From NCBI GenBank assembly GCA_025924215.1, contig JAICEJ010000001.1, positions 1 to 40,989 on the forward strand: a stretch of DNA of 40,989 bases. The letters are read 5' to 3'. The position numbers and the translations under genes are program-made. The notes beneath the pieces are model-generated. The model searched no databases, had not been told where the DNA came from, and was given only the letters and a program-made list of their open reading frames with translations. This stretch comes from Candidatus Binatia bacterium. GTDB taxonomy: Bacteria; Desulfobacterota; Binatia; UBA9968. Below are positions 5,710 to 37,597 of this stretch, piece after piece. Each line of letters opens with the position of its first letter. The first letter of the stretch is position 1.

Positions 5710-5712
5710 GCC

Positions 5713-19123: not shown

Positions 19124-20014
19124 TTGAACGGCCATCTCGGCTTGATCCATGCCATCATTCCCGCAACAGTAGACATCCGCGTGTCGATCCCAGAAGACCA
19201 TCCGTCCACCAGGAACCTAGGGTCGGAGCGCACCGGATCCGGAACCATAGTCGATCCGGAAGGGTACATTTTAACGGTTAATTACGTGGTGACCGGAGCT
19301 TCGTCCATTACCGTCACCGTGGCCGAAGGAGAAGAGTATCCGGGTGAGATCGTTACACAGGATCTCGATAGCGGACTCGCGCTTTTAAAAATCCCTGCGC
19401 GCGGGCTGCCTTTCCTCAAACCGGCAACCGAACCGGCCGCACTTGGCCAGGCTAGCCTGATCGTTGCCAGCAGCGGAAACAACGAACGAAAAGTGAGCGG
19501 AGGCTATGTAACTTCACTGGAACCGTATGACGGCCATTGGGAATACATGCTCGATGAAACGGTGAGAGTGACAGCCGTCAATCCGGGCTTCGGCGGCGGT
19601 ACATTGGCAAATTTCAAAGCAGAGATGTTGGGCGTGGTTTCCCTGAATCTTGCGGACGTTGGAAAATTCTCATTGGCCATTCCGATCCGCTATTACCTTG
19701 ATCAGGAGCAGGCGTTCAAACAACGTTCCCTGGTCAGTCAAAAGCCTTGGTTAGGTTTTTATCCCCACTTGCTCGCCGGACATGTGGTTGTCGGCGGAGT
19801 GACGGAAGGGAGCCCGGCTGATCGTCAGGGACTTAAAGAGGGCGACATCATTCTGGATGTTGAGAAAACGCAAATCCGCTCGCGGCGGCAACTCTATCAG
19901 GAGCTTTGGAAGAAGCGACCGGGGGAACGCATTTGTCTGCGTGTCTTAAGAAACGAAACCAGTATCGAGCTAAACTTAATCGGCGCCGACCGCCGCAATC
20001 GTTATGGCAGCTAG
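19124..20014 (+). CDS. HtrA/DegP-like trypsin-fold protein with one PDZ domain. The catalytic triad is substituted, so it is predicted to be inactive. No signal peptide.
   Basis: TTG at 19124 lies 7 nt after AAGGAG. The sequence GSGTIVDPEGYILTVNYVV, DSGLALLKI and NPGFGGGTL aligns by eye to DegP GSGVII..GYVVTNNHVV, RSDIALIQI and NRGNSGGAL. The C-terminal PDZ reads GVTEGSPADRQGLKEGDIILDV. Confidence 0.75.
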   Translation: MNGHLGLIHAIIPATVDIRVSIPEDHPSTRNLGSERTGSGTIVDPEGYILTVNYVVTGASSITVTVAEGEEYPGEIVTQDLDSGLALLKIPARGLPFLKPATEPAALGQASLIVASSGNNERKVSGGYVTSLEPYDGHWEYMLDETVRVTAVNPGFGGGTLANFKAEMLGVVSLNLADVGKFSLAIPIRYYLDQEQAFKQRSLVSQKPWLGFYPHLLAGHVVVGGVTEGSPADRQGLKEGDIILDVEKTQIRSRRQLYQELWKKRPGERICLRVLRNETSIELNLIGADRRNRYGS

Positions 20015-20478
20015 TCGTCGCCACCGACCTTCTGTAATTTACCTTGTCCAGTCACCTTGATGGCGGTTGCCGGAGTATAGGCTTCGGGTTCATAGTTGAT
20101 CAAGGCTTTATCGCTCTGCTGCAAATCTTTTAATTTGACTCTGCTGCCGGCTTTTTCGATATTCGTTTTGTCATCGACTCCAACCACCTCCTCGCGAACC
20201 TTTCCCTTGCGCTCTACTTGGAAGGTAATCGTTCGCTGGCCAACGCTGCTGATGACACCCTCAACTTCGACAGCTTTGGACTTGGTTTGTTTTGTTTCGC
20301 CCTTTGTGGCTTTTGCCTCTGCGAGCGGCTTTGCTTCGGCGACAGGTTGGGCCTGCGCCGGTGTCGGTTTTTGCGCGGGTGCGGCCGTTTGTTCCTGAAC
20401 AGATGAACACGCGATTAAACCGGCAGCGAGCAGGAGTGAGCCCGTTGATAACGTCAAGAAATCAGTTGTTCGTTTCAT
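20011..20478 (-). CDS. Hypothetical lipoprotein
   Basis: ATG at 20478 follows GGAGGAATGAA. MKRTTDFLTLSTGSLLLAAGLIA|C carries the lipobox, followed by a Pro/Ala/Lys-rich linker and a small beta-rich domain. The longest ORF extends to 20556. Confidence 0.55.
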   Translation of the reverse strand: MKRTTDFLTLSTGSLLLAAGLIACSSVQEQTAAPAQKPTPAQAQPVAEAKPLAEAKATKGETKQTKSKAVEVEGVISSVGQRTITFQVERKGKVREEVVGVDDKTNIEKAGSRVKLKDLQQSDKALINYEPEAYTPATAIKVTGQGKLQKVGGDD

Positions 20479-20628
20479 TTCATTCCTCCGAACTCTTTTA
20501 CTCGCAATTCCGAAATATGATCGCGCAAAAATTGTAGAACTTAAAGCATACTTCATTTCAAATTGTCAAGGCGCGTCGGGAACCATGGCGTTGAGAAAAG
20601 CTCCAAAACAACATACGGGTGAGAGCGC

Positions 20629-21072
20629 ATGAGTTCGAGCAAACCGAACAATTTAAATGTGACAACCTATCGAGTTATCTATGGCGATACGGATCAAATG
20701 GGCGTGGTCTACTACGCCAACTACCTACGCTGGTTCGAAAGAGGCCGCGGTGAGTTTCTGCGTGCAGGCGGAATTCCGTACGAGACCATCGAGCGACGGG
20801 GCATGCATTTTCCAGTTGCGGAGCTATCATGCCGGTACCTCAGACCAGCGCGTTACGATGATCTGATTGTCATCGAGACACGAATAGCTTCGGTCAGCCG
20901 CGCATCATTGACATTCACCTACCGCATCATGCGCGAGGCTGAAGCCACGCTGCTGGCCTCCTGCTCGACCAAGCACGCCTGTGTCGATGGTCAGGGAAGG
21001 ATCATGAGAATTGAGGAGGAGCTGATGAAGGCGCTCGAGATCATGCTTTGCCCACCCGAAGAGACTGCTTGA
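20629..21072 (+). CDS. ybgC: Acyl-CoA thioesterase, YbgC/4HBT hotdog family
   Basis: YRVIYGDTDQMGVVYYANYLRWFERGRGEFLR matches the YbgC-type active-site region (Asp in the DTD motif). Confidence 0.8.
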   Translation: MSSSKPNNLNVTTYRVIYGDTDQMGVVYYANYLRWFERGRGEFLRAGGIPYETIERRGMHFPVAELSCRYLRPARYDDLIVIETRIASVSRASLTFTYRIMREAEATLLASCSTKHACVDGQGRIMRIEEELMKALEIMLCPPEETA

Positions 21073-21076
21073 AAAT

Positions 21077-21103
21077 GATGCTGGTTATTATGGATAACGC
21101 ATC
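21077..21103 (-). terminator. Possible terminator hairpin filling the gap between the convergent ybgC and queG stops
   Basis: The structure is gatgc-(tg)-gttat / tatgg loop / ataac-gcatc. On the minus strand it is followed by ATTTTCAA. It is AT-rich and contains a bulge, so it is weak. Confidence 0.3.
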
Positions 21104-22276
21104 CTACAAGTGATCAGGTACAGGTTCACTGGCGGCCTCACGAAGAGCCTCCTCAATCTCGCTTTTAACCTCCGGGTTAGCTTCTGAAAGCAATTTCTGC
21201 CGCAGTGTCGCGAGCGCTTCAGATGTACCAATCCGGCCCAGCGCCCATGCGACATGACCGCGAACTAGCGGCTCTTCGTCATTCAGTGCCTTGGTCAGCG
21301 CCGGCACGGCTTCGGGGGCGCGATTATTGCCAAGCGCCACGGCTACATTGCGCAAAAATCCACGTCGCTTTGCCCGGACAATGGGACTGCCGCGAAACCG
21401 GCGGCGAAATTCATCGTCGTCGATCGACAGCAGCGCAACCAAATCGGGAGCATAAAGCCCTTGGCGCGGAGAGTAAGACGGTTGTTCGGTGGAATTCGCT
21501 TTAACATTATAAGGACAGACTTCCTGACAGATGTCGCAGCCGAAAATGTGATTACCTATAAGGGGTCTCAAATGACGTGGAATAAAACCCTTGAGCTCGA
21601 TCGTAAGGTAGGAGATGCAGCGACGCGCATCCAACAGATAGGGTCCAATGAAGGCGCCGGTTGGGCAGGCTTTTAGGCACAGATCACATTGACCGCAGCG
21701 GTCACGAATGGCCTGATCATAAGCAAGGGGCAGACTGGTAAACAGCTCACCAAGGAAAAACCAGGAGCCTTTGTTCGGCGAAATCAGCAGAGTATTTTTC
21801 CCGATCCATCCTATGCCGGCGGTACCCGCAAAGTCCCGCTCCAGAATCGGGGCGGAATCGACGAAGGTCCTGCCTTTCACCGTTTCGCCGCCAATCTCAC
21901 GAAGAAACATAAGCAGGCTTTCCAGTTTGTTCCGGATAATCTCATGATAATCATCACCCCAAGCATAGCGCGAGATCCAGCCGCGCCCGCGTTCTGACGG
22001 GGTTGGCCGTTTAAACGGCGTGTAGTAGTTCATTCCCACGGAAATGATTGACACCGCCCAGGGGACAAGCAGCCTTGGATCGCGCCGCAAAAGCTCGGTT
22101 CGCTCCATATAATCGAGATGACCGTGAAATTTTTGCCGCAGCCAATCAGCGAACGACTGCTCGTGCGGCGGCACCCGCACTGGAGAGATTCCAACGAGTT
22201 CGAAGCCGAGCGTTTGCGCTTCATTCTTGATGCGCTGAGACTGCTCGGCCAAGTTCGGCTCAGCGGTGGAAATCAT
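21104..22276 (-). CDS. queG: Epoxyqueuosine reductase
   Basis: Two 4Fe-4S motifs (CGQCDLCLKACP and FGCDICQEVCPYN) plus C-terminal HEAT-like repeats (EPLVRGHVAWALGRIG). Confidence 0.9.
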   Translation of the reverse strand: MISTAEPNLAEQSQRIKNEAQTLGFELVGISPVRVPPHEQSFADWLRQKFHGHLDYMERTELLRRDPRLLVPWAVSIISVGMNYYTPFKRPTPSERGRGWISRYAWGDDYHEIIRNKLESLLMFLREIGGETVKGRTFVDSAPILERDFAGTAGIGWIGKNTLLISPNKGSWFFLGELFTSLPLAYDQAIRDRCGQCDLCLKACPTGAFIGPYLLDARRCISYLTIELKGFIPRHLRPLIGNHIFGCDICQEVCPYNVKANSTEQPSYSPRQGLYAPDLVALLSIDDDEFRRRFRGSPIVRAKRRGFLRNVAVALGNNRAPEAVPALTKALNDEEPLVRGHVAWALGRIGTSEALATLRQKLLSEANPEVKSEIEEALREAASEPVPDHL

Positions 22277-22330
22277 AAGGCCAGAAAACTCCGGAATGAG
22301 ATTGACGCGAAACTACAACTGGAGAGAGGC

Positions 22331-22780
22331 TCAGTGAAGCGGACCGCCGCCGCTCGATCCGGTGACAGTGGGGTCCAACAATGGGCGTCTGCCGGCAAAG
22401 CCGTCCTCAATTCTGTGCCAGTAGGCAATCTCAGGTTCGCCGTATTGCCAACAAAGAAAGACAATCTCTTCTCCCAATAAACAGGGAAAATCGAGCAATC
22501 CTTGTTCCACGCCTTTGCACACGCAGCCATGTTGTTGAATCTCATTGACAGCGTCGTTGATCTGCTTGATCAAGGCTGCGATCTCATCGTTCTGCTGTAA
22601 ACGCCGCATCAGGTTGGGCGTTTCCGGGTCGATCTGCTCCGCGCGAATCACTATTTCGCTCTTGGCCCGCAGGCGCCGTATGATCTCCAGAATGCGTTCG
22701 ATCGTCGGACGTACTATGGGCAAAAGGGTGTTCGCTTCGTTGATCGTGAACAATCTCGAATAAGGCGAAGATGAATCCAT
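22331..22780 (-). CDS. Hypothetical protein, DUF2203-like (family recalled from memory)
   Basis: 149 aa. N-terminal FTINEANTLLPIVRPTIERILEI and a helical middle region. It is co-directional with the REC-LpxC gene, 39 nt downstream. Confidence 0.5.
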   Translation of the reverse strand: MDSSSPYSRLFTINEANTLLPIVRPTIERILEIIRRLRAKSEIVIRAEQIDPETPNLMRRLQQNDEIAALIKQINDAVNEIQQHGCVCKGVEQGLLDFPCLLGEEIVFLCWQYGEPEIAYWHRIEDGFAGRRPLLDPTVTGSSGGGPLH

Positions 22781-22819
22781 ACCGATCCACTTTGGTAGTC
22801 GGCGCTTTAACGAGAGGAG

Positions 22820-24139
22820 TTATAGCCCCAGGCCGGATCGAACAGCTCTCAGTAATGCAATGTTATCGGAATGGCCGGTCATGTGAGCCGTGATTTTGCC
22901 GCGGATGGGTCTTCCCAGCAGATAAAAATCCCCGATAATGTCAAGAATTTTATGACGCGCCAGCTCCTCCGGAAAGCGCAAGTCCGTGTTTACAATCTTC
23001 TCATCATCGATCAAGATACAATTACTAAGCTTGCCTCCGTTGATCAAGCCGAGCTTTTGCATTTTCTCCATATCGCGCAAAAAACCGAAGGTCCTTGCCG
23101 GCGCAATTTCTTCTTTGAAGGAAGTCGGGCTCTGATGTTCGAATATGTATTCCTGCACGCCCACCGGTTTCGGATACTTCAGAACGTAGTGAACCGAAAA
23201 CGTCTTCGCTGGTTCAATACTAATCCATTCTCCTCCGTCGTCACCGATCCGATAAGGACGATCAATGACGATTCTTGACCAGCTTTCGTCTTGCTCGTGC
23301 AGCCCAGCTTCCTCGATGAGTTCGCAAAACTCCGCCGCCGATCCATCCAAGATCGGAACTTCGCCTTGAACTTTCACCAGCAAATTCGTAATTCCGTAAC
23401 TATGGAGGACCGCCAAAAAATGCTCTACGGTCGCAACCGTAAAACCGCGATGGCTCAATGAGGTCGCGAATCCCGTTGATCCGACATAATCTAAATGCGC
23501 GGGTACGCTGACATCGCCCGAGATACCCTCGAATAAGATGCCGCTATTTGGCGGTAGCGGATGCAGGATCAATCCTGTTTTAATACCTGAATGCAAACCC
23601 TGACCCGAACTCACCACGCTCTTTCTTAAAGTTTTTTGTCGGATCGGTTCGGCGGATGTGACAATCCGCGGAGCTATACTCACTGAGTCCGACTCCTCGG
23701 CCCCATGACGTTGGCCGATTTCGGACAGGCTCTGAGCCACAGGGAGCTCGCCCAGGGCGCGTTGCACCGTATGTAGCAGGCCGTCGAGCGAGACCGGCTT
23801 TTCGATAAAATCGAAAGCGCCAAATTTAGTTGCGGTCACCGCCGTGTGGATATTTCCGTGCCCGGAGATCATCACTACATTGGTTGAAGGCTTCTTGCTC
23901 TTGATCTCCTTGAGCAACCCAATACCATCGATTTTTGGCATCCAGATGTCGAGCAGCACAAGCCCCGGTTGCTCTGCTTCGATCATTTCCAGGACGCAAG
24001 TGGCATCCGCGGTATCGAGTACGCGATATCCCTCGTCCGTCAGCACTTCTTTAACCGATTCCCGAACCTTGTCCTCATCATCGACAACAAGGATGGTTTT
24101 CTGAGATGATAACTCCTTCACCGCCCCTCCATTTTTCAT
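22820..24139 (-). CDS. lpxC: Fusion protein: N-terminal response-regulator receiver (REC) domain plus C-terminal UDP-3-O-acyl-N-acetylglucosamine deacetylase (LpxC) domain
   Basis: Single uninterrupted 439-aa ORF. REC covers about residues 16-130: VVDDE, LLDIWMP (Asp64, nt 23950-23948), MISGHG, FIEKP. After a roughly 35-aa linker, the LpxC domain runs from IRQKTLRKSVVSSGQGLHSG. It contains TVEHF, ARTFGFLRD, ARHKILDIIGDF and TGHSDN, which align with E. coli E78/H79, T191, H238/K239/D242/D246 and H265. Confidence 0.85.
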   Translation of the reverse strand: MKNGGAVKELSSQKTILVVDDEDKVRESVKEVLTDEGYRVLDTADATCVLEMIEAEQPGLVLLDIWMPKIDGIGLLKEIKSKKPSTNVVMISGHGNIHTAVTATKFGAFDFIEKPVSLDGLLHTVQRALGELPVAQSLSEIGQRHGAEESDSVSIAPRIVTSAEPIRQKTLRKSVVSSGQGLHSGIKTGLILHPLPPNSGILFEGISGDVSVPAHLDYVGSTGFATSLSHRGFTVATVEHFLAVLHSYGITNLLVKVQGEVPILDGSAAEFCELIEEAGLHEQDESWSRIVIDRPYRIGDDGGEWISIEPAKTFSVHYVLKYPKPVGVQEYIFEHQSPTSFKEEIAPARTFGFLRDMEKMQKLGLINGGKLSNCILIDDEKIVNTDLRFPEELARHKILDIIGDFYLLGRPIRGKITAHMTGHSDNIALLRAVRSGLGL

Positions 24140-26370
24140 AGCTGCGCAGCCTTCCTTTTAAACTCGCGTAGCGCGCCCTGCTCGCGCACCGGAAACTCTA
24201 TCACGAACCTGGTGCCGCGCGGTTCGTTGTTCCGCACCCGAATATAACCGCGATGATCTTCGACAATTTGATTGACGATGGTGAGCCCTAGGCCGGTACC
24301 CTGTTTTTTAGTAGAAAATCCAGGCTCGAATATTCTAACTCGAGCTTCCGCCGCCATGCCACAACCATCGTCGGCAACTTCAAGGTAGACCGTGTTCCGA
24401 GTGCGATCATAGGCAGTCGCTATCTGCACATGGCCGCCGCCGCCAACGGCGGCCACGGCGTTGTCTAATAAGTTGATCATCACCCGTTTGATTTGCTCGC
24501 GATCGAGCTCCAGCGCCGGCAACTCTCCCTGCCGGAACTCAAAATCGATATGGTTATGTCCTTCCTTAAACAGGAATAGCGCGTCCTGAACAATCACGTT
24601 TAGGTCGTTGAGCACCGGCTGAGCCGTAGGTAATCTTGCGAATTGCGAAAACTCATTGACCAGATTCTTGAGCTCGACCACCTGCTGGATAATCGTCGTC
24701 GTGCATTTGTCCAGTACCGCGCCGTCCCCTTGCAACAGCTTAGCATAGCGTTTGCGAAGTCTCTCGGCCGAGAGCTGTATCGGCGTGAGCGGATTTTTGA
24801 TTTCGTGCGCGATTCGCCGCGCCACTTCGCGCCACGCTTCCATCCTCTGTACTTTTTGAATCTGGGTAATGTCTTCGAGAAAAATCATGATACCTAGGCT
24901 GTCATTAGCATCATCTCTGAGGGTAGCGGCGGTAGCGAATACGGTAAGGAGATGGTCCGGTAGCTGTATCTGCAATTCAGTCTCGCTGCTTTCGCGATCT
25001 TTGAGGTTGTCTATCAAGTCGCGCATGACCATTAGCGACTCGGTTTCAAACGCTTCCCTGTAGTATTTTCCGAGAGCAGCAGAACCGTCCACACCTAGCA
25101 TTTGTTCGGCCGCCTTGTTCCAAGAAGTGATCTTCCCGTTCGGATCGACAGCAATCACTCCTGCGGTAATATTAGCGAGAAGTGTTTCAACGAACTTGCC
25201 GCGGCGCAACAATTCCAGGTTGCTCTTCTTTAAGTCTCGGGTCATCTGGTTGAATGACTCAACCAAGGTTCCTAACTCGTCATCGCCGGCCGCCTCAATT
25301 TGATAATCCCAGTTGCCATGAGCGACTTCGTGAGTCCCCGCTGCCACCTGTTGAATCGGGATCGTGATTCCTTTGGCAAGATAAAGGCCGAACCAAGTCG
25401 CGGCAAAGATAATCACAAGGGTAATTAGTAGCAGGGTCAGAATGTAACTGTTTTTCACCGGGTTCTTCAGAAAACCAAGGTGCTTGTACTGCTCATACGA
25501 CCGGGAGATTTCAAGCGCGCGTTTAGTAATGCTCTTCGGCACGTAATAATCGACTACGACGACTCCCTGAATCCGCTTGCCGCTGTCATAGATCGGAACA
25601 CCCCCGCGAATAACGTCGCCCTCGCCAAAAGCCTGAGTTCGGGTGACTTCCAGGCCGCGCAGCGCCCGGTTAAGGAAATCGGCTTCAGCCTTGATGCTAA
25701 CTCCAGTGGGTACCTGGTCATTGAAAGCCACTACTACCGGCTGGTGATCTGGTGAAAATAATTCCACAGTTCCGAGATTGTACTCACGCTGCTTGATCTG
25801 GATAAATTCTTTAAGATCGCTTCGCCGTCCGGTCTCGAACAGCCCCTGTTCAGTGACGCGGCGGCTTAGCTGCCGTGCATAGAAGAGCGCATTGTTTGCC
25901 GAGTTTTGATAATAGGTCTGGCCGATTTCCAACGATCCCTGGAGGGCGGTCTCAACCTGTATATCGAACCATCTTTCAAAGGAGCGAGTGACAAATCCGC
26001 CAGCGATGACGAAGAGCAACAGGGTCGGAACAAGCGACAAACCGACAAATGCGATCACCAGGCGAACCCGTAGCCGTGAACCGAGGATGCCGCGTTTGCG
26101 TTCGAAAACCAGCTTCACCAGGTTTCTGACGACCAGAAAAACCAGGAGAATCAGAAGAATAATGTTGATGTTGATTAAGAGAAAGAAAACTATGTTATTG
26201 CTGAGAGAATATTCCGACGAAACATCGGGAAGCTGCACCTCGAAGAATGCGAACGCAAGCACCACCAGTGAAGTGATGAGAATCGCCAGCCCTTCACGCT
26301 TTCGCCGTTTAGTTTCATCCAACGTGGGCGTGTCGCTGATCTGCTGTTGCGTTTTGGAGGTTTTGCCCAT
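24136..26370 (-). CDS. ntrY: NtrY-type membrane sensor histidine kinase (TM segments, extracytoplasmic domain, HAMP, PAS, HisKA, HATPase_c)
   Basis: 744 aa. Hydrophobic segments flank a roughly 190-aa loop. The HAMP region reads AKGITIPIQQVAAGTHEVAHGNWDYQIE...FNQMTRDL and the PAS region reads ITAGVIAVDPNGKITSWNKAAEQMLG. The H-box is RIAHEIKNPLTPIQLSAERL. The N/G boxes are LLDNAV, DDGCGM and GTGLGL. Its stop overlaps the REC-LpxC start (ATGA at 24139-24136). Confidence 0.85.
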   Translation of the reverse strand: MGKTSKTQQQISDTPTLDETKRRKREGLAILITSLVVLAFAFFEVQLPDVSSEYSLSNNIVFFLLININIILLILLVFLVVRNLVKLVFERKRGILGSRLRVRLVIAFVGLSLVPTLLLFVIAGGFVTRSFERWFDIQVETALQGSLEIGQTYYQNSANNALFYARQLSRRVTEQGLFETGRRSDLKEFIQIKQREYNLGTVELFSPDHQPVVVAFNDQVPTGVSIKAEADFLNRALRGLEVTRTQAFGEGDVIRGGVPIYDSGKRIQGVVVVDYYVPKSITKRALEISRSYEQYKHLGFLKNPVKNSYILTLLLITLVIIFAATWFGLYLAKGITIPIQQVAAGTHEVAHGNWDYQIEAAGDDELGTLVESFNQMTRDLKKSNLELLRRGKFVETLLANITAGVIAVDPNGKITSWNKAAEQMLGVDGSAALGKYYREAFETESLMVMRDLIDNLKDRESSETELQIQLPDHLLTVFATAATLRDDANDSLGIMIFLEDITQIQKVQRMEAWREVARRIAHEIKNPLTPIQLSAERLRKRYAKLLQGDGAVLDKCTTTIIQQVVELKNLVNEFSQFARLPTAQPVLNDLNVIVQDALFLFKEGHNHIDFEFRQGELPALELDREQIKRVMINLLDNAVAAVGGGGHVQIATAYDRTRNTVYLEVADDGCGMAAEARVRIFEPGFSTKKQGTGLGLTIVNQIVEDHRGYIRVRNNEPRGTRFVIEFPVREQGALREFKRKAAQL

Positions 26371-26404
26371 GGACTTGCTAAGACACTAAAATGCAAAAAG
26401 AATT

Positions 26405-26617
26405 TTATCTCCTAAAGAGATAGAGAACAAGGCTGATGAGGATGCTGATAACAATGCACGTGGTGATTGGAAAGTAAAAACTGAAGCGACCTCGCTGGAC
26501 GTAGATATCACCCGGTAAATGCCCGAGCCAAGGGATTTTTCCACCCAATGTAAACAGTACTCCGACGGCAACGGTTACGATCCCCAGAATGATCAAAGTT
26601 CTACCGAACTCAGGCAT
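26405..26617 (-). CDS. Small membrane protein, DUF2905-like
   Basis: 70 aa with two TM helices and the motif LPGDIYVQRGRFSFYFPITT. The family name is recalled from memory. Confidence 0.6.
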   Translation of the reverse strand: MPEFGRTLIILGIVTVAVGVLFTLGGKIPWLGHLPGDIYVQRGRFSFYFPITTCIVISILISLVLYLFRR

Positions 26618-26662
26618 AGGGTTAGATCCGCTGCTTGAGGAGGATTTCAGATAATTGCTACT

Positions 26663-27736
26663 TCAAAACAAACTAGGTTGGTTTTTAGGAGCACTGCCCT
26701 TCTGTCCCTTAGGTCTCTGGCCGAAGTGATTGTAAGCCAACGGCGTCGCCATCCGCCCTCTAGGCGTTCGCTGGATGAAACCCGCCTGAATCAGAAATGG
26801 CTCATAGACATCTTCAATGGTGTCCTTTTCTTCGCCAATCGCCGCTGCCAGAGTCTCGATTCCAACCGGTCCTCCGGAGAACTTTTCGATTAGGGTCAAT
26901 AGCAACATGGTATCCATTTTATCGAGGCCGATGGAGTCAACCTCCAACATCTGCAACGCCTCGACAGTCACCGCGAGCGTTATCCGTCCGGTTGCTTTGA
27001 CCTGCGCATAGTCGCGCACACGGCGTAGCAGGCGGTTGGCGATTCGTGGTGTGCCACGCGACCGCCGCGCGATCTCGGCGATTCCGTCCTGTTCGCCAGC
27101 CACGCCGAGAATAACAGCTGAGCGCTGGAGAAGATCAGTGAGGGTTTCCGGCGAATAAAAATCTAACCGGAAGCTCAGCCCGAAACGATCCCGCAGCGGC
27201 GAGGTCAGCAGTCCTGATCTTGTCGTTGCGCCAATCAAAGTAAATGGCTTCAACTCAAGCTTGATGGATCGGGCCGCCGGACCTTGTCCAATCATGATAT
27301 CGATCTGAAAATCTTCCATGGCGGGATATAGAACCTCTTCGACAATATGGTTGAGGCGATGAATTTCATCGATGAACAAGATATCGCCTTCCTCCAAATT
27401 GGTGAGAATCGCCGCCAGATCACCGGCACGCTCGATAATCGGCCCTGAAGTCCCTTTAATATTGACGCCCATTTCGCGGGCGATGATGTAGGCCAGGGAT
27501 GTTTTTCCTAATCCCGGCGGGCCATGAAACAAAAGGTGGTCTAGAACCTCACCACGCCCGCGGGCTGCGTCAATGGCTACTTTAAGGTTTTCTTTGACCC
27601 GATCTTGGCCGACGTATTCCTCGAATCCACGGGGCCGCAGATTTACCTCGTAGTTTAGATCCTCATCGCTTCGCGCCGGCGAGATCTCCCGTGATTGCGA
27701 GGATTTGTCCGAATCGATGATGGGTGAGTGGGCCAT
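26663..27736 (-). CDS. ruvB: Holliday junction branch migration ATPase RuvB
   Basis: [19 protein letters not shown], Walker [10 protein letters not shown] and FIDEIHRL. Confidence 0.95.
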
Positions 27737-27744
27737 AATCAGTG

Positions 27745-28338
27745 TCAGCGACTCATGCGCCGAAGAACTTCCTTAATCACCTGCTCGAGACTGTGATTGC
27801 CCGCTTGAACGCAGTCACGCACATTCTTTTCAACCTCCACTTTACGATAGCCCAGATTAACGAGAGCCGAAACAGCGTCTTGGAGCAGCTGCGGGTCGCG
27901 CCCTTGCGCAGGAGTTTCTATGGCTTGAGATTCGAGAAGCGCAAAGCGATCACGAAGCTCGACGATCATGCGCTCGGCAAGTTTCTTGCCGACGCCAGGG
28001 ATCGATACCAAACGCAACTGATCGCCTCCCTTGATTGCACGGGTGAGTTCATCGGCGGGAATTCCCGACAAAATGTTCAGCGCAAGTTTAGGTCCGATGC
28101 CGGCAACGCCGTTGAGTTGCAAGAAAACTTGTTTTTCCTCCGGCTCCTGGAAGCCGAAAAGCTGTAGGGCATCCTCGCGCAAGTGAGTGTGAATATGCAG
28201 CCGGACCGGCGCGCCGATCTCCGGCAGATGATAAAACACATTGAGCGGGATGAAGACCTGATAACCGACTCCACCGACGTCAACGACAATCTCTCCTGCA
28301 ACCTTCTGCGCCAGAGTGCCGCTAATTTGAGCGATCAT
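27745..28338 (-). CDS. ruvA: Holliday junction DNA-binding protein RuvA
   Basis: MIAQISGTL...[13 protein letters not shown]... plus HhH motifs ([24 protein letters not shown]). Confidence 0.9.
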
Positions 28339-28380
28339 GACTGCTTAATCTTTCGGTTAATTTCAACGCCGTTCGGCATC

Positions 28381-28971
28381 TCAAGGAAGGATCGACTTGC
28401 GCGGCCGCAAGGGCTCAATGGTTCTTGGCAGGGCTTCGACGAGGCGCGCGCGCAACACCTGCATATGAAGATGGCAAATAGCCGCCGCGAGCGCGTCCGC
28501 GGCGTCGGCCGGCAACTTGCCGCGAAGGCGCAGCAAAGACGCAATCATCATTTGTACCTGCTGTTTAGTGGCGTGGCCGTAGCCTACCACCGCGGCCTTG
28601 ATCTCAACGGCGGCATACTCATGAACTGCCAAGCTTCTTCGCGCAGCGGCGAGAATGGCTACGCCGCGCGCCTGACCGAGCTTGAGCGCGCTCTGCGCGT
28701 TTCGCGCGAAAAAAACCCGCTCGACGCAAACACCATCCGGATTATAGGAATCGATGACTTCCTCAAGGCCGCGGTAAATGCGCTCCAGCCGAGCCGCCTG
28801 CCCCTGAGTGCCCGCCGTAACCACCGTGCCATGCGCCAGATGGATCAATGAAGTGCCTGTCGCCTCAACGACTCCCCAACCGGTTACTGCCGAACCGGGA
28901 TCGATGCCGAGAACCCTGCGCGCCAGCGTCTGTGCATCAGCCCTGCGCCGGACAGGCGAAGGCCAGCTCAA
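28381..28971 (-). CDS. ruvC: Crossover junction endodeoxyribonuclease RuvC
   Basis: [16 protein letters not shown] and the rest of the RNase-H-like fold sequence. The TTG start overlaps the yebC stop (TTGA). Confidence 0.88.
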
Positions 28972-29714
28972 CTAGCCTTCTCCATTAACTCACTCGGGAT
29001 GTTGAAATTAGCCGAAACGCTCTGGACATCGTCGTGATCTTCAAGTTCCTCGGTAAGCTTCAAAATCTGTTCGACATTCTTCTCGTCGACATCAACAGTA
29101 TTCTTCGGCACCATGGTGATTTGCGCGCTGGCGATCGCTACTTTTTCGAGTTCGAGCCGTTCCTTGACTTTGTCGAACTCTTCGACGGTTGTAATCACTT
29201 CGAAAATTTCATCTTCATCCCTAACATCCTCGGCCCCGGCATCAAGAACAATTGACATCAAGCGATCCTCATCAACTTGAGTTTTCTCGATCGTGATCAG
29301 GCCCTTTTTGTCGAACATCCAGGCGACGCAGCCGGCCTCGCCCATATTGCCGCCGTGTTTTGTAAACAGGCGCCGAATTTCTGAAACCGTGCGATTTTTG
29401 TTATCCGTAAGCACATGCGCCAATATGGCTGCACCACCCGGCCCATATCCTTCGTATTGAATCTCGTCGTAGGTGACACCTTCAAGCTCGCCGGTTCCCT
29501 TTTTGATCGCCCGATCGATGTTCTCGGTGGGCATACTTGCAGCTCGAGCCGTGAGGACCGCAGTGCGCAGACGCGGATTCGCATTAATATCGCCGCCGCC
29601 CATTCGGGCCGCAACCGTAATTTCCTTGATCAGCTTGGTGAAGAGCTTGCCCTTCTTCGCGTCTTTTGCGGCTTTCTTATGCTTGATCGTGCTCCATTTT
29701 GAATGGCCTGACAT
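28968..29714 (-). CDS. yebC: YebC/PmpR family DNA-binding regulatory protein
   Basis: [37 protein letters not shown] is the family-diagnostic N-terminus. The gene sits in the conserved position upstream of ruvC. Confidence 0.9.
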
Positions 29715-29989
29715 AAACTAAGACACTCCCTTGTAAGTTGTCGGTAAAGTAGCACAATCTCTGCGCGGCGTAAACGGCACTTAGTTATTGAAAATGCGCC
29801 TTTTGAAAGCATTCTAATTGACCATTCGAACAAAACCACGTAGTGTGAAGCACGTTTTCATGAGCTCAACAGGAACTCACATAGTAGAGATCTGCATTCC
29901 GCCTTGCCAACTGGCGTCATAAGCCTTCCAACAGACAGAAAATCTTCGAAGAGCCGTTTACTCAATCGTGATACAGGGAGCGAAACATC

Positions 29990-30556
29990 ATGTCATTTTA
30001 CATTAGCGAACTCGCCGCGTTCGCAGCCTTTTTCGTGTATGGAAGCTTTTTCGAATGGACTTTACACAAGTATCTCATGCATCAGCCGCGCTGGAAGTAT
30101 CCATTTCGCGCTCATGCATTGGTTCATCATGGTCTCTTCCGCACGGGAACCGATTATTTTCTGTCGGATAAGAAATATATGAGAAAGGTTCGCTTCGCTT
30201 GGTGGAACGCACCGCTGATCATCGCGCTTCACGTTCCTGCAATACTCCTTATACAGAACCTTGTTGGCGCGCCTCTACTCGTCGGCGCGTGCGCGGCGAT
30301 GGCGGTTTATTATGCGCTTTACGAGTATCTGCACTACTGCATGCACATTCCCATGGGGCGGCGCTTCGAGCAAACTCGGTGGTTTCGCTGGCTTGACGCG
30401 CATCATCATATGCATCACAAACGGCACCTGAGCAATCTCAATGTTGTTTTACCGTTGGCTGATGCCGTATTCGGTAGTCTGATAAGCGCAAAAGAAAGAG
30501 TTCCCACTCCGGATCGGCAGCAGGGGGCCTACAGGATGGAAGCGTTGCTCGGTTAA
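29990..30556 (+). CDS. Small integral-membrane di-iron oxygenase of the fatty-acid hydroxylase / sterol desaturase superfamily
   Basis: 188 aa with histidine boxes HKYLMH, HALVHH, HYCMH and HHHMHH, separated by hydrophobic segments. Confidence 0.6.
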   Translation: MSFYISELAAFAAFFVYGSFFEWTLHKYLMHQPRWKYPFRAHALVHHGLFRTGTDYFLSDKKYMRKVRFAWWNAPLIIALHVPAILLIQNLVGAPLLVGACAAMAVYYALYEYLHYCMHIPMGRRFEQTRWFRWLDAHHHMHHKRHLSNLNVVLPLADAVFGSLISAKERVPTPDRQQGAYRMEALLG

Positions 30557-35231: not shown

Positions 35232-35645
35232 TGACTGCTCCTTGTATCTATAACGGAACCTAGGGGAGTCGTCCTATTTTGTAGCTAGCCCGACATCATA
35301 AAGCAACAGGAAGGTTGACAGTTGAGCGGTCCGGAGAAAACCCGAGCTATACGCATCACGGGGCTGCCGCGGCGGGAAAATCTTTTTAAACCTTTATCAA
35401 GTGCCACTTAGGACAGATTAGCCGCCTGGCTCACCCACCGGGAGATGCTGTCTTACGGATTGCCGGCAATTAGTACACCATTTCGCTGGAAACGCGTGAG
35501 AACCGAACCGGAGTGCAATCAGGCTAGAAGCTGCTGACTTTGGAAAGATCAGCGGACAGTTAGCAGAATACGAATAGACTGTTATCGGCAACTCCACTCC
35601 TCTGTTCGAACCTGCTATGCTCAATCATCATTGAACGGAGGACTT

Positions 35646-36458
35646 ATGAACGCATCGTATTTCGCGCGATTATTAATATTGTGTATGTGCATCGCCCTGG
35701 TCGGCGCTTCCGCGGCGGCACAAGCGCAGCCGGCGAAAAGCTATGAGCCCCAGGTCGGCCAAGAAGGTAAGGATGTCGTCTGGGTGCCAACGCCTCAGGC
35801 TCTGGTAGACAAGATGCTCGATATGGCAAAAGTAACCCCTAAAGACTTCGTCATCGATCTGGGTTCGGGTGATGGGCGCACTGTAATTACGGCAGCTAAA
35901 CGCGGCGCCAAGGCTCACGGCATCGAATACAATCCGGACATGGTCGAGCTCGCCAAGCGCAATGCCGCCAAAGAAGGCGTCAGCGATCGAGCCACCTTTG
36001 CTAAAGCGGACTTGTTCGAAAGCGATTTCTCGCAAGCTCAGGTGATCACGATGTTTCTCCTGTCGAGCATCAACATGAAGCTCCGCCCTAAGATTCTCGA
36101 TCTCAAACCGGGAACGCGCATCGTTTCGAATACTTTCGATATGGGAGAATGGAAGGCGGATGAAACGGGCAGGGCCGATAATTGCAACGGTTATTGTACG
36201 GCTTACCTGTGGATCGTGCCGGCGAAGGTAGACGGAACGTGGAAGCTGCCCAACGGTGAGCTGACGCTTAAACAAACCTTTCAGATGATCAGCGGCACTC
36301 TAAAATCTGGCAACGTCGTCACACCGGTCAACGGCAAACTAAACGGCGAGGAGATTAGTTTCACTGCCGGTGAGGGACAATACAACGGACGGGTTAACGG
36401 CAACTCGATGGACGGATCGCTAAAATCCGGCGGCAAATGGAGCGCCACGAAGCGGTGA
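35646..36458 (+). CDS. Class I SAM-dependent methyltransferase with a cleavable-looking Sec signal peptide (paralog 1)
   Basis: ATG at 35646 follows GGAGGA. MNASYFARLLILCMCIALVGASAAAQA|QP is the signal peptide. SAM motif I is VIDLGSGDGRTVITAAKRGAKAHGIEYNP. A roughly 75-aa Gly/Asn-rich beta-type C-terminal extension follows. Confidence 0.75.
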   Translation: MNASYFARLLILCMCIALVGASAAAQAQPAKSYEPQVGQEGKDVVWVPTPQALVDKMLDMAKVTPKDFVIDLGSGDGRTVITAAKRGAKAHGIEYNPDMVELAKRNAAKEGVSDRATFAKADLFESDFSQAQVITMFLLSSINMKLRPKILDLKPGTRIVSNTFDMGEWKADETGRADNCNGYCTAYLWIVPAKVDGTWKLPNGELTLKQTFQMISGTLKSGNVVTPVNGKLNGEEISFTAGEGQYNGRVNGNSMDGSLKSGGKWSATKR

Positions 36459-37582
36459 ATCGTGACCAGAAATCCTCGAGTAAATCAATTCCGCTGACGC
36501 CGACTTCAAGCACCGCATTCTGCTTATCGCTCCAGGTTTGTAGCCGCGCGCGCATCTCAACAGCTCACAAAAACTATGGCCCAAGTCTTTTGACTTGGGC
36601 CATAGTTTCTCTGCTCCTTGGGGGAATGAAAAAAAACCCATCCAACTTCTTGGCACCGCCTAGGAGCGCCAAGCTATCCTGCGCTTCCTTCCTGGACAAT
36701 TGCGCATCGCTAAGGTATGGAGATCGTTTGTCTGCTCTATTCACCGGTCGATACTGTCAGTATCACCGCTCTGGGAGGATTAGAATGATTGTATCGCGTT
36801 TAACTAGCAGTTTATCATTGGCGCTTAGCCTTTCTCTGATTACCGCAATCGGATTTGCCCAGCCGGCAAAGCAATACGAACCGCAGGTCGGCCAAGAAGG
36901 CAAGGATGTCGTCTGGGTGCCAACGCCTCAGGCTCTGGTCGAAAAAATGCTCGACATGGCAAAAGTAACCGCCAAAGATTATGTCATCGATTTGGGTTCG
37001 GGTGATGGCCGCACTGTAATTACGGCAGCTAAACGCGGCGCCAAGGCTCACGGCATCGAATACAATCCGGACATGGTCGAGCTGGCCAAGCGCAATGCCG
37101 CCAAAGAGGGCGTCAGCGATCGAGCCACCTTTGCTAAAGCGGACTTGTTCGAAAGCGATTTCTCGCAAGCTCAGGTAATCACCATGTTCCTCCTGCCCAG
37201 TATCAATCTCAAACTTCGTCCCAAGATCCTCGATTTAAAACCGGGCACGCGCATTGTATCGAATTCTTTTGATATGGAAGAATGGAAGCCTGACGAAACC
37301 GCCAACGCGGAAGGATGCAGCAACTGGTGCACAGCCTACCTTTGGATCGTGCCGGCGAAAGTAAACGGGACGTGGAAGCTGCCTAATGGCGAGCTGACGC
37401 TCAAACAAACCTTTCAGATGATCAGCGGCACTCTAAAATCTGGCAACGTCGTCACACCGGTCAACGGCAAACTAAATGGCGAGGAGATTAGTTTCACTGC
37501 CGGCGAGGGACAATACAACGGGCGGGTTAACGGCAACTCGATGGACGGATCGCTAAAATCCGGCGGCAAATGGAGCGCTACG
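35727..37582 (+). repeat. Tandem direct duplication: 723-bp units at 35727-36449 and 36860-37582 (period 1133 bp)
   Basis: Hand alignment shows identical runs of about 70 nt or more, for example cgcactgtaattacggcagctaaacgcggcgccaaggctcacggcatcgaatacaatccggacatggtcgagct in both copies. Similarity starts exactly at the codons for the mature N-terminus (QPAK) and ends at ...KWSAT. Confidence 0.9.
36571..36608 (+). terminator. Perfect 17-bp-stem hairpin between the two methyltransferase genes (probable terminator)
   Basis: aaactatggcccaagtc / tttt / gacttgggccatagttt, followed by CTCTGCT. The stem is flanked by an A-run and a T-run, so it could act on either strand. Confidence 0.5.
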
Positions 37583-37597
37583 CGGGCTGGGAGGTAA
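36785..37597 (+). CDS. Class I SAM-dependent methyltransferase with a Sec signal peptide (paralog 2)
   Basis: ATG at 36785 follows GGGAGGA. MIVSRLTSSLSLALSLSLITAIGFA|QP is the signal peptide. The mature part is nearly identical to paralog 1. The 116-codon upstream extension in the ORF track crosses the hairpin and is rejected. Confidence 0.75.
   Translation: MIVSRLTSSLSLALSLSLITAIGFAQPAKQYEPQVGQEGKDVVWVPTPQALVEKMLDMAKVTAKDYVIDLGSGDGRTVITAAKRGAKAHGIEYNPDMVELAKRNAAKEGVSDRATFAKADLFESDFSQAQVITMFLLPSINLKLRPKILDLKPGTRIVSNSFDMEEWKPDETANAEGCSNWCTAYLWIVPAKVNGTWKLPNGELTLKQTFQMISGTLKSGNVVTPVNGKLNGEEISFTAGEGQYNGRVNGNSMDGSLKSGGKWSATRAGR

Follow-up and report, generated by a model that had tools for sequence, protein, structure and literature searches.

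The DNA analyzed, hereafter the window, is a 41-kb stretch of a Candidatus Binatia MAG. On its minus strand, the gene for a 744-aa sensor histidine kinase (HK) overlaps through an ATGA the gene for a 439-aa protein in which a receiver (REC) is fused to LpxC. Both genes lie in a co-directional string, yebC-ruvC-ruvA-ruvB-DUF2905-HK-REC-LpxC-DUF2203-queG, and plsX-fabD-fabG-acpP is also found among the neighbors of the fused gene in the window. The features of the locus are as follows, all on the minus strand.

22331..22780, minus strand: DUF2203 protein, 149 aa (Pfam), 39 nt downstream of REC-LpxC
22820..24139, minus strand: REC-LpxC fusion protein, 439 aa (Pfam and NCBIfam)
22841..23638, minus strand: LpxC domain, residues 168-433 (PF03331, E 7e-83)
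23645..23764, minus strand: inter-domain linker, residues 126-165 (alignment and disorder prediction)
23765..24094, minus strand: NtrX-like receiver, residues 16-125 (Response_reg PF00072, E 1e-30)
23948-23950, minus strand: codon of D64, the phospho-acceptor Asp (codon position)
24136..24139, minus strand: ATGA overlap, kinase stop TGA (24138-24136) on REC-LpxC start ATG (24139-24137)
24150-24156, minus strand: AGGAAGG, 10 nt upstream of the REC-LpxC start codon
24136..26370, minus strand: NtrY-type sensor histidine kinase, 744 aa (Pfam, hydropathy, full-length homology)
24793-24795, minus strand: codon of kinase N526 (codon position)
24805..24807, minus strand: codon of kinase His522, predicted autophosphorylation site in AHEIKNPL (codon position)
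26405..26617, minus strand: DUF2905 small membrane protein, 70 aa (Pfam), 34 nt upstream of the kinase

An earlier note, made without database searches, had given the open reading frames, coordinates and domain layout of these genes, an NtrY-type 744-aa kinase, an ATGA overlap at 24139-24136, and gaps of 34, -4, 39 and 54 nt in the run DUF2905/HK/REC-LpxC/DUF2203/queG. All of these held, the kinase type by its Pfam layout and H-box and the gaps exactly. The co-directional string it described held in part, as the string really begins further upstream, at yebC.

Anatomy of the kinase and the REC-LpxC protein

Pfam matches along the kinase were NtrY_N (PF19312, residues 30-231, 39 bits against a cutoff of 23.2), HAMP (332-381), PAS (393-501), HisKA (513-580) and HATPase_c (623-729). 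Hydropathy placed four hydrophobic segments in the N-terminal region around an extracytoplasmic loop of ~175 aa (residues 130-303). The H-box, AHEIKNP, occupies residues 521-527 and provides H522 and N526 (H+4) within the motif HEIKN. No NtrY model was among the best 25 NCBIfam matches. The kinase is NtrY-type by domain layout and H-box, and orthology to the experimentally studied NtrY or PlrS is not part of this claim.

The receiver holds the acidic pocket (D20, D21), the acceptor (D64) and the switch residues (S92, K114). The best NCBIfam receiver match of the protein was NtrX (NF051870, 131.6 bits), and the top PDB receiver matches were the Brucella NtrX structures 5m7n and 4d6x, with which it has in common DIW..DG and VVMISGHGNI.TAV....GA.DFIEKP. 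These matches bear out an earlier suggestion of an NtrX/NtrC-like receiver and make it NtrX-type. Its phospho-acceptor chemistry is intact as judged from sequence alone, and phosphotransfer itself remains an inference. The first part of the linker is still alignable to the stretch after the NtrX receiver, and disorder was predicted for residues 136-161; the disordered linker measures roughly 36 aa. Neither AAA+ nor HTH_8 was present in the window REC-LpxC protein, which is NtrX-derived but not an NtrX, as the criterion of an AAA+ domain and a C-terminal Fis-type HTH is unmet.

The LpxC domain matched positions 1-266 of the 268 in the PF03331 model and scored 254.6 bits with TIGR00325 lpxC (cutoff 187.25). 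The expected LpxC residues E239, H240, T350, F351, H396, K397, D400, D404 and H423 were all present. We take H240, H396 and D400 to be zinc ligands (aligned with H78, H237 and D241 of P. aeruginosa LpxC), E239 and H423 to be the catalytic pair (E77 and H264), and T350, K397 and D404 to be supporting residues (T190, K238 and D245). The AF2 model (pLDDT 85) placed the LpxC domain at TM 0.95 and rmsd 1.6-1.7 A from Aquifex LpxC, and Foldseek comparison with Aquifex and Pseudomonas LpxC gave TMt 0.84-0.95 and rmsd 1.6-2.4 A. The domain is complete and is predicted by the model to have the canonical two-domain fold, and its deacetylase activity is inferred. Just 6 residues follow it, with no C-terminal degron-type tail.

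The AF2 model of the whole protein had a pTM of 0.81, with the linker disordered. This value exceeds 0.61 (270/439), the maximum that the LpxC domain could reach alone, and the receiver is therefore placed on LpxC with confidence. The AF2 output came without coordinates or PAE, and the placement is argued from pTM arithmetic only; docking of the receiver on LpxC in the window protein is a model prediction in which neither the contact surface nor any active-site contact is resolved. The most divergent family member reached a pTM of only 0.70, so a fixed packing is not clearly family-wide.

Conservation of the fusion and its linkage to a kinase

The REC-LpxC fusion was present in hundreds of independent contigs, and is therefore neither chance nor an assembly artefact. 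Across 299 full-length fusions the receiver pocket and switch residues D20, D21, D64, S92 and K114 were conserved in 297-299, including the acceptor Asp (D64) in 297 and K114 in 298. On the LpxC side, E239, H240, F351, H396, K397, D400, D404 and H423 were present without exception (299 of 299) and T350 was conserved in 298, and the catalytic residues were essentially invariant over at least four phylum-level groups. The fusions carried a median of 5-7 aa beyond the LpxC domain, compared with 31 aa in 67 standalone LpxCs. An E. coli-type C-terminal degron route is therefore unavailable to them.

Within the Binatia clade the kinase was immediately upstream of the fusion in 72 of 72 metagenomic loci, and was full-length in 48 of 48. 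The closest relatives (91-97% identity) also show the 4-nt overlap of kinase and fusion; most other junctions in the clade have gaps of ~8-24 nt, and a GGAG-type motif was seen in the junctions printed. DUF2905 was found in every Binatia-clade locus whose upstream sequence was long enough (46/46), and DUF2203 in 74/74. Neither was found beside the fusion in the non-Binatia lineages examined, and both are clade-specific companions.

The earlier note had proposed asking whether the fusion always adjoins an NtrY-like kinase. When this check was run, adjacency was invariant in the Binatia clade and recurred in five other lineages with unrelated flanks, but "always" failed for the wider family. Of 13 distinct genomic contexts, with flanks otherwise unrelated, 6 had an NtrY-type kinase adjoining the fusion and 7 were orphans with no kinase adjacent, so linkage to a kinase is not required for the fusion to function or, at the least, to be maintained. 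Kinases of the layout NtrY_N-HAMP-PAS-HisKA lie directly upstream of the fusion in L004, L005, L014 and L007/L008 and are full-length homologues of the window kinase, which shares 36-76% identity over its full length with kinases adjoining fusions in other lineages. In L093 the upstream kinase (HAMP-PAS-HisKA-HATPase, no NtrY_N match on record) is preceded by DUF4390, in the order MutS...DUF4390-HK-fusion-LolA-RseP. The syntenic L009 reads MutS-fusion-LolA-RseP; the kinase is missing and the acceptor Asp is replaced by Asn. The two form a natural experiment, in which one orphan lineage lost both the kinase and the acceptor Asp. A search near the window kinase for an alternative cognate regulator found no further receiver, AAA+ or HTH_8 anywhere in the 41 kb.

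These data bear on whether the fusion is a mere by-product of the joining of neighboring ntrX and lpxC genes, with the receiver passive or merely dimerising and the kinase signaling elsewhere. In its favor, lpxC adjoins NtrC-family regulator operons in some Desulfobacterota, e.g. S. fumaroxidans (PMC3333781), and orphan fusions exist. Against it stand the near-complete retention of the acceptor Asp and its partners, the unbroken kinase adjacency in the Binatia clade, the loss of the Asp in the single lineage that lost the kinase, and the lack of any other receiver in the window. Several lineages also apparently dropped AAA+/HTH, yet always kept the receiver beside LpxC. We consider this explanation very unlikely.

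Relation of the fusion to NtrX

Relatives of the window protein form a series. Full NtrX (REC, AAA+, HTH) joined to LpxC was observed in Desulfobacterota, REC-HTH-LpxC intermediates (HTH_8) in Nitrospinota and Entotheonellia, and the REC-LpxC form in Binatia and others. The long forms align with the NtrX model over its entire length, and NtrX is their best family (335-344 bits); Walker A is kept in 128 of 131, and GAFTGA is missing from all 131. Compared with long forms, the window domains showed identities of 46-54% (REC) and 51-63% (LpxC; 56-63% for five of the seven compared), and compared with more divergent short forms 31-47% (REC) and 35-53% (LpxC). Both window domains are thus closer to the long forms than to the more divergent short forms, although four short forms reach 54-57% in LpxC and overlap the long-form range.

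Of 60 bootstrap NJ trees, 49 separated the fused LpxC domains from their closest standalone counterparts. These trees are crude, and Binatia were nested among the long forms with only ~73% support. We infer that a whole NtrX (REC, a GAFTGA-less AAA+ and HTH_8) joined LpxC, and that AAA+/HTH was later deleted in several lineages including Binatia. The claim that the output module had been replaced by LpxC held as far as the absence of AAA+/HTH is concerned; because relatives carry whole NtrX plus LpxC, the module is better described as fused, then internally deleted.

A small number of genuine standalone LpxCs encoded on long contigs (P0167, P0219) group within the fused clade or next to it. 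REC-LpxC could be a conditional second LpxC, with a housekeeping standalone lpxC elsewhere and the kinase adding capacity under particular envelope conditions. Besides the position of P0167 and P0219, this is favored by the fact that sole-copy status of the fused lpxC is not demonstrated. Opposing it, the fused gene has conserved housekeeping neighbors (ruvABC and plsX-fabD-fabG-acpP in the window, lolA and rseP in other lineages), the fused protein qualifies by score as an lpxC equivalog, its catalytic residues show essentially no variation over at least four phylum-level groups, and a second LpxC is absent within the 41-kb window. The explanation remains possible.

The long forms also raise the possibility of a reversed flow, in which the LpxC domain would inform the receiver, and also the DNA-binding part where a long form has one, of whether substrate or product is bound, as an input tuning NtrX/NtrY signaling. 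The long forms keep HTH_8 and could still regulate genes, and enzyme-derived sensor domains are common. However, LpxC is the sole possible output of the window protein, which is without a DNA-binding domain or any other effector, and the essentially invariant catalytic residues indicate that the enzyme works and is not a pseudoenzyme serving as a sensor. We regard reversed flow as very improbable.

Proposed regulation and comparison with known systems

The reading we favor, with a probability of roughly 0.6, is that this is a genuine two-component pair derived from NtrY-NtrX, with LpxC itself as the regulated output. A kinase-regulator pair with an enzymatic envelope output had been put forward in the earlier note and is supported here. 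The anatomy, the intact residues, the conserved linkage and the evolutionary series are shown; phosphotransfer, an effect on LpxC and the direction of that effect are inferred. In the proposed mechanism the membrane kinase would sense an envelope, periplasmic or redox cue via its extracytoplasmic loop and PAS domain, autophosphorylate on H522, and determine whether D64 of the fused receiver is phosphorylated. Its HEIKN motif implies phosphatase as well as kinase activity. The receiver, packed on the LpxC domain via the flexible linker, may then alter LpxC output through its phosphorylation state, most likely as a change in catalytic activity, by analogy with the gating of the esterase by the CheB receiver. 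The sign of regulation cannot be inferred, and the support for cognate pairing is genomic only, with no biochemical evidence. The arrangement suggests direct phosphorylation control of LpxC, the enzyme that commits the cell to outer-membrane lipid A. Neither the fusion nor such control of LpxC was described anywhere in the full-text literature searched, and the terms "receiver", "response regulator", "fusion" and "fused" are absent from the main text of an LpxC review (PMC12444477).

The same signaling pair could instead govern the amount of LpxC. Phosphorylation would then unmask or mask a signal for degradation or for an adaptor, by RssB- or CpdR-type logic, or shift membrane localisation, standing in for the FtsH/LapB or Lon routes used elsewhere. 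E. coli LpxC is set mainly by protein level, and its degradation by FtsH needs the C-terminal end (references cited in PMC3333781). For some alphaproteobacterial LpxCs a regulatory role of Lon has been suggested (PMC12444477), and fusions missing the tail would need another turnover handle. Weak support comes from ClpX/ClpP/Lon genes located no more than 8 kb from the fusion in L003, L011 and L094, and from a ClpB-type AAA+ gene directly upstream of it in L095. The high pTM, however, suggests a fixed intramolecular receiver-LpxC contact, a simpler fit to allostery, and the pair has no protease or adaptor gene as a conserved companion from lineage to lineage. We regard control of amount as unlikely.

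A bolder form of the favored reading, control of LpxC activity by its receiver, is a single joint claim. In it the cell's only LpxC would be part of NtrX in Binatota, Nitrospinota, Entotheonellia/Tectomicrobia and Desulfobacterota (at least four phylum-level groups), and an envelope-sensing NtrY would turn the committed LPS step on or off by direct phosphorylation, replacing FtsH/LapB-type proteolysis. If true, the fusion would be a "Rosetta stone" marking LpxC/outer-membrane control as a core, ancestral NtrYX job, and could also explain the essentiality of NtrX/PlrR~P in some proteobacteria. We consider it less likely than not.

We compared the pair with NtrY-NtrX/PlrS-PlrR of Brucella, Rhodobacter, Caulobacter and Bordetella. 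Like NtrY and PlrS, the window kinase has multiple TM segments with a periplasmic domain, HAMP, PAS, HisKA with HEIKN, and HATPase, and its H522 corresponds to PlrS H521; in PlrS, HEIKN at H521/N525 supports both kinase and phosphatase activity (PMC13001219). The window receiver is most similar to that of NtrX, and relatives of the pair share with NtrYX/PlrSR an upstream DUF4390/PlrP gene. Loss of AAA+ has a precedent in beta-proteobacterial NtrX without this domain (PMC13001219). The link between NtrYX and the envelope that the earlier note raised for some alphaproteobacteria was confirmed: deletion of ntrYX in Rhodobacter sphaeroides raised lpxC mRNA 8.8-fold and also LPS (PMC7240162), and according to a 2025 review NtrYX represses the transcription of lpxC in two alphaproteobacteria (PMC12444477). 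The NtrX proteins known so far regulate dozens of genes as transcription factors and affect lpxC at the level of transcription, by an indirect route in the case of R. sphaeroides, whereas the window receiver is covalently joined to LpxC with no DNA-binding domain left.

CheB, PleD/WspR REC-GGDEF and RpfG REC-HD-GYP likewise have a receiver joined by a flexible linker to a catalytic domain in one polypeptide, and a histidine kinase as partner. The docked receiver of CheB keeps the enzyme inhibited until phosphorylation occurs. REC-LpxC differs in that its output is an envelope biosynthetic enzyme rather than a signaling or adaptation enzyme, and its receiver is from the NtrC/NtrX lineage; the comparison is one of functional analogy, not homology. 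A two-component system dedicated to LpxC is also found in D. vulgaris, where DNA-binding-site mapping gave lpxC as the only target of the response regulator DVU2934, and in S. fumaroxidans lpxC adjoins the operon orthologous to DVU2931/DVU2934 (PMC3333781). That control is transcriptional and uses separate proteins, and we imply no orthology to the window NtrY/NtrX-like proteins. In model bacteria LpxC is controlled by FtsH-LapB/YejM proteolysis (E. coli), a suggested Lon route (some alphaproteobacterial LpxCs) or Ght (Neisseria). Common to all is the need to keep LPS in balance with the synthesis of phospholipid and peptidoglycan (PMC12444477), but REC-LpxC lacks the C-terminal degron tail, and its proposed handle is instead a phospho-receiver at the N-terminus, connected to a membrane sensor kinase.

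The kinase and REC-LpxC genes

The minus strand from 21.1 to 29.7 kb carries a co-directional string of genes (yebC, ruvC, ruvA, ruvB, DUF2905, the NtrY-type kinase, REC-LpxC, DUF2203 and queG), with gaps from yebC to queG of -4, 42, 8, 45, 34, -4, 39 and 54 nt. The TGA of the kinase and the ATG of REC-LpxC overlap as ATGA at 24139-24136 (minus strand), and AGGAAGG was observed 10 nt upstream of the REC-LpxC start. The coordinates, domain calls and gap sizes in the earlier note all held when compared with gene calls and Pfam. A promoter and terminator scan of 20900-30000 gave counts at the level of shuffled sequence and was thus uninformative on operon boundaries. Apart from REC-LpxC itself, no coding sequence for a receiver, AAA+, HTH_8 or LpxC was found in the window.

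Features of the gene pair (window positions, followed by residues of each protein)
24136-26370, minus strand, NtrY-type histidine kinase, 744 aa (Pfam)
Kinase residues 30-231, NtrY_N (Pfam)
Kinase residues 332-381, HAMP (Pfam)
Kinase residues 393-501, PAS (Pfam)
Kinase residues 513-580, HisKA (Pfam)
Kinase residues 623-729, HATPase_c (Pfam)
22820-24139, minus strand, REC-LpxC, 439 aa, consisting of receiver, linker and LpxC
REC-LpxC residues 16-125, Response_reg (Pfam)
Between receiver and LpxC, linker of ~36-40 aa
REC-LpxC residues 168-433, LpxC domain (PF03331, E 7e-83)

The kinase meets the NtrY architecture, with a loop of ~175 aa amid four hydrophobic segments and an AHEIKNP H-box (H522, N526). 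REC-LpxC scored 254.6 bits against the curated lpxC equivalog model (cutoff 187.25). Its receiver retains D20, D21, D64, S92 and K114, while its LpxC domain retains E239 and H240 (TVEH), T350, F351, H396, K397, D400 and D404 (HKILDxxGD) and H423, which align to P. aeruginosa E77, H78, T190, F191, H237, K238, D241, D245 and H264. The roles assigned to these LpxC residues come from LpxC structures. Conservation was counted over 299 parsed full-length fused homologues: D64 and D21 were each present in 297, K114 in 298 and S/T92 in all 299, and in the LpxC domain T350 was present in 298 and E239, H240, F351, H396, K397, D400, D404 and H423 each in 299 of 299. The possibility that members of the Binatia clade (the close metagenomic relatives of REC-LpxC) are pseudo-receivers or pseudo-enzymes was rejected on this residue conservation; an exception elsewhere is protein P0140, which has Asn as acceptor.

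An AF2 model of REC-LpxC (pLDDT 85) placed its LpxC domain close to Aquifex LpxC (TM 0.95, rmsd 1.6-1.7 A). The C-terminal domain meets every LpxC criterion of sequence and fold, while its deacetylase activity is inferred from sequence alone. Six residues remain after the LpxC domain, and this tail had a median of 5-7 aa across the fusions versus 31 aa in 67 standalone LpxCs, so that the C-terminal tail is missing in the fusions. Degradation of E. coli LpxC by FtsH requires its C-terminal end (reference cited in PMC3333781; PMC12444477).

The window (1-41 kb) is a housekeeping setting with many envelope and lipid genes, including murJ, leuS, ribD, glyA, rpiB, fabG, fabD, plsX and yceD, together with a Trypsin_2-PDZ protease, a 4HBT thioesterase, an RlpA-like DPBB+SPOR protein, a fatty-acid hydroxylase and aconitase. 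Its gene order is kept in relatives 73-97% identical. Two tandem, slightly overlapping, paralogous class I methyltransferase genes with DOT1-like matches were observed at 35631-36458 and 36437-37597 (plus strand). A 181-aa ORF at 20011-20556 (minus strand) had no Pfam match; its N-terminus resembles that of a lipoprotein (LLLAAGLIAC) and it carries Ala/Lys/Pro/Glu-rich repeats. Pfam-less ORFs lie at the equivalent position in the homologous loci L001 and L002.

Linkage of the kinase to the fusion

The Binatia clade was sampled as 80 metagenomic loci (69-97% identity), with counts restricted to loci having enough flank. A kinase end was observed immediately before the fusion in 72 of 72 loci and a full-length kinase in 48 of 48, with DUF2905 upstream in 46 of 46 and DUF2203 downstream in 74 of 74. 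The kinase of the Binatia relative L001 was 76% identical to that of the window. In the closest relatives the two genes overlap by 4 nt; most other loci of the clade have a gap of 8-24 nt, with a GGAG-type motif in the junctions inspected. The junction script leaves a few spurious negative values, and we relied on the dominant range and the 4-nt overlaps. In the window, DUF2905 (26405-26617, a 70-aa membrane protein) and DUF2203 (22331-22780) flank the pair; both are absent beside the fusion in non-Binatia lineages, and any role in the system is unassigned.

Outside the Binatia clade, an NtrY_N-HAMP-PAS-HisKA kinase was observed directly upstream of the fusion at L004, L005, L014 and L007/L008, and the kinases of L004, L005, L007 and L014 were homologous to the window kinase over their full length (36-47% identity). 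Flanks are unrelated among these loci and L093, indicating that what is conserved is the kinase together with the fusion.

Fusion loci with an adjacent kinase outside the Binatia clade
L004, long form (REC-AAA+-HTH_8-LpxC), gap of 9 nt
L005, long form, overlap of 4 nt
L014, long form, overlap of 8 nt, DUF4390 before the kinase (1866-2471)
L007/L008, Nitrospinota-labelled cluster, gap of 10 nt, DUF4390 before the kinase (5176-5748)
L093, Entotheonellia-type, kinase HAMP-PAS-HisKA-HATPase with no NtrY_N match on record, DUF4390 before the kinase (3113-3712)

DUF4390 is PlrP, for which genetic evidence indicates a role as a third component of PlrSR, an NtrYX-family system of Bordetella (PMC13001219), and its position before these kinases further supports their NtrY-family identity. 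It was observed next to a fusion-linked kinase in one Nitrospinota-labelled cluster, one Entotheonellia-labelled cluster and one unclassified MAG. The survey in that paper covered proteobacteria only, with DUF4390 in beta, gamma and zeta groups and Magnetococcia (PMC13001219), and the occurrences at L007/L008, L014 and L093 therefore lie outside that phylum.

Seven other contexts (L003, L006, L009/L010, L011/L012, L013, L094, L095) had no adjacent kinase, so the linkage is frequent but not universal. The orphan locus L009 reads MutS-fusion-LolA-RseP, while the syntenic L093 reads MutS...DUF4390-HK-fusion-LolA-RseP. In L009/L010 (P0140) both the kinase and DUF4390 (PlrP) genes are missing and the receiver acceptor Asp is replaced by Asn; compared with L093, kinase loss and phosphorylation-site loss coincide in this one orphan lineage. 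Protease and chaperone genes were also observed near orphan fusions (ClpX, ClpP and Lon in L003, ClpX in L011/L012, ClpP and ClpX in L094), and in L095 the gene directly upstream of the fusion encodes a ClpB-type AAA+ protein. These neighbours may be coincidental, or may hint at a role for turnover at loci without a linked kinase.

Architectures and probable descent from NtrX

Binatia falls within the phylum Candidatus Binatota. Close homologues of REC-LpxC (72-100% identical) formed at least 120 metagenomic clusters at 90% identity. When 1.84 billion cluster representatives were searched, the fusion proved to extend far beyond the Binatia clade, in three architectures. The long form (~650-745 aa) consists of REC, a sigma54-type AAA+ domain, lid, HTH_8 and LpxC; the intermediate form (~490-505 aa) of REC, HTH_8 and LpxC; and the short form (~410-460 aa, identity down to ~30%) of REC and LpxC. 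Long forms are numerous (at least 120 clusters when grouped at 90% identity), and those named were labelled Deltaproteobacteria, Desulfobacterota or Thermodesulfobacteriota, with NtrX as the JGI name. The intermediate forms were labelled Nitrospinota and Candidatus Entotheonellia. Databases annotate the fusion proteins as plain LpxC or NtrX. A gene-call or assembly-chimera artefact was rejected, as the fusion recurs with conserved junctions on hundreds of independent contigs drawn from several sources. A scan of GTDB genome contigs with the short-fusion alignment matched mostly standalone LpxC genes; the fusion loci L013 and L014 were among its matches.

An NtrX-like receiver is shared by the window protein and its short, intermediate and long relatives, the deepest branch excepted. 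Long forms align to nearly the whole NCBIfam NtrX model (positions 3-451 of 452), with NtrX as their best family (335-344 bits), and they also score above the lpxC cutoff. Walker A was kept in 128 of 131 long forms (e.g. P0122, P0316 and P0387) and GAFTGA was absent from all 131; NtrX itself is not known to carry GAFTGA. Among the six long forms in which the AAA+ region was read, Walker B had often degenerated (to DS, DA, DD or worse), suggesting that these AAA+ modules are in decay.

In alignment, the Binatia proteins match long forms over the receiver and following linker and again from the LpxC N-terminus, with ~300 aa containing the AAA+ and HTH domains missing, while the Nitrospinota and Entotheonellia forms lack the AAA+ domain alone.

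Identity of the window protein to fused relatives
Long forms (n=7), REC 46-54%, LpxC 51-63% (56-63% for five)
REC-HTH forms (n=2), REC 49-52%, LpxC 52-60%
Four nearer short forms (P0133, P0136, P0138, P0140), REC 44-48%, LpxC 54-57%
More divergent short forms, REC 31-47%, LpxC 35-53%

In neighbor-joining trees of LpxC domains, 49 of 60 bootstrap replicates kept the fused sequences apart from their closest standalone LpxCs, and 44 of 60 had long or HTH forms in the group sister to the Binatia pair. Three sequences in the fused clade that looked like LpxC alone were fragments (contigs of 0.9-1.2 kb); P0167 and P0219, within or beside the clade, are genuine standalone LpxC proteins. The most economical reading, held with moderate confidence because the trees are crude, is a single ancient joining of NtrX and LpxC, after which internal segments were deleted repeatedly. 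Loss of AAA+ has precedent in the family, in beta-proteobacterial NtrX (PMC13001219). The series would represent a transcription-factor regulator stripped until its receiver controls an enzyme directly. Lacking both AAA+ and HTH, the window regulator is NtrX-derived but falls outside the definition of NtrX.

Proposed control of LpxC and known systems

The pair provides a complete kinase, phospho-receiver and enzyme in tight, conserved genetic linkage. We propose that the kinase would set the phosphorylation state of D64, and that this state would change LpxC output; both phosphotransfer and its effect are inferred. In the AF2 model (pTM 0.81) linker residues 136-161 are disordered (pLDDT below 50). 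The LpxC domain (270 of 439 residues) would by our own arithmetic be worth a pTM of ~0.6 alone, so the receiver is predicted to be placed on LpxC with low predicted error, an estimate made without PAE or coordinates. The model of the most divergent member (P0397, deepest branch) had a pTM of 0.70, which is weak evidence for docking there. In CheB a docked receiver gates the catalytic domain, and the resemblance of the predicted REC-LpxC model to CheB favours, by analogy, allosteric control of LpxC activity. The main alternative is that the receiver controls LpxC stability or localisation instead. The data do not give a sign for the proposed D64-dependent control. Active NtrYX lowers lpxC expression in alphaproteobacteria (PMC7240162, PMC12444477).

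As far as sequence analysis reaches, the interpretation in the earlier note of an NtrY-type kinase and REC-LpxC pair with an envelope output is supported, and it is extended here by the evolutionary series and the population-level linkage. On the same basis we infer a two-component system whose enzymatic output is new, and with it a candidate new mode of LpxC control. LpxC catalyzes the step that commits the cell to lipid A synthesis, the most tightly controlled in that pathway, and is an antibiotic target; its control outside enterobacteria is largely unresolved. If correct, a kinase-wired receiver fused to LpxC would be a new, directly testable route of post-translational control.

No description of a receiver-LpxC or whole NtrX-LpxC fusion was found in the full-text literature searched, which is not proof of absence, and none of the words "receiver", "response regulator", "fusion" or "fused" occurs in the main text of a 2025 review on how lipid A is regulated. 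Response regulators with enzymatic outputs are well established (CheB, PleD, RpfG). The D. vulgaris response regulator DVU2934 targets lpxC alone (PMC3333781). The NtrYX system is widespread and has puzzling, pleiotropic phenotypes related to the envelope; that it affects the envelope and lpxC transcription is already known (PMC7240162, PMC12444477). The previous connection between NtrYX and lpxC was at the transcript level only, whereas the fusion joins NtrYX physically to LpxC.
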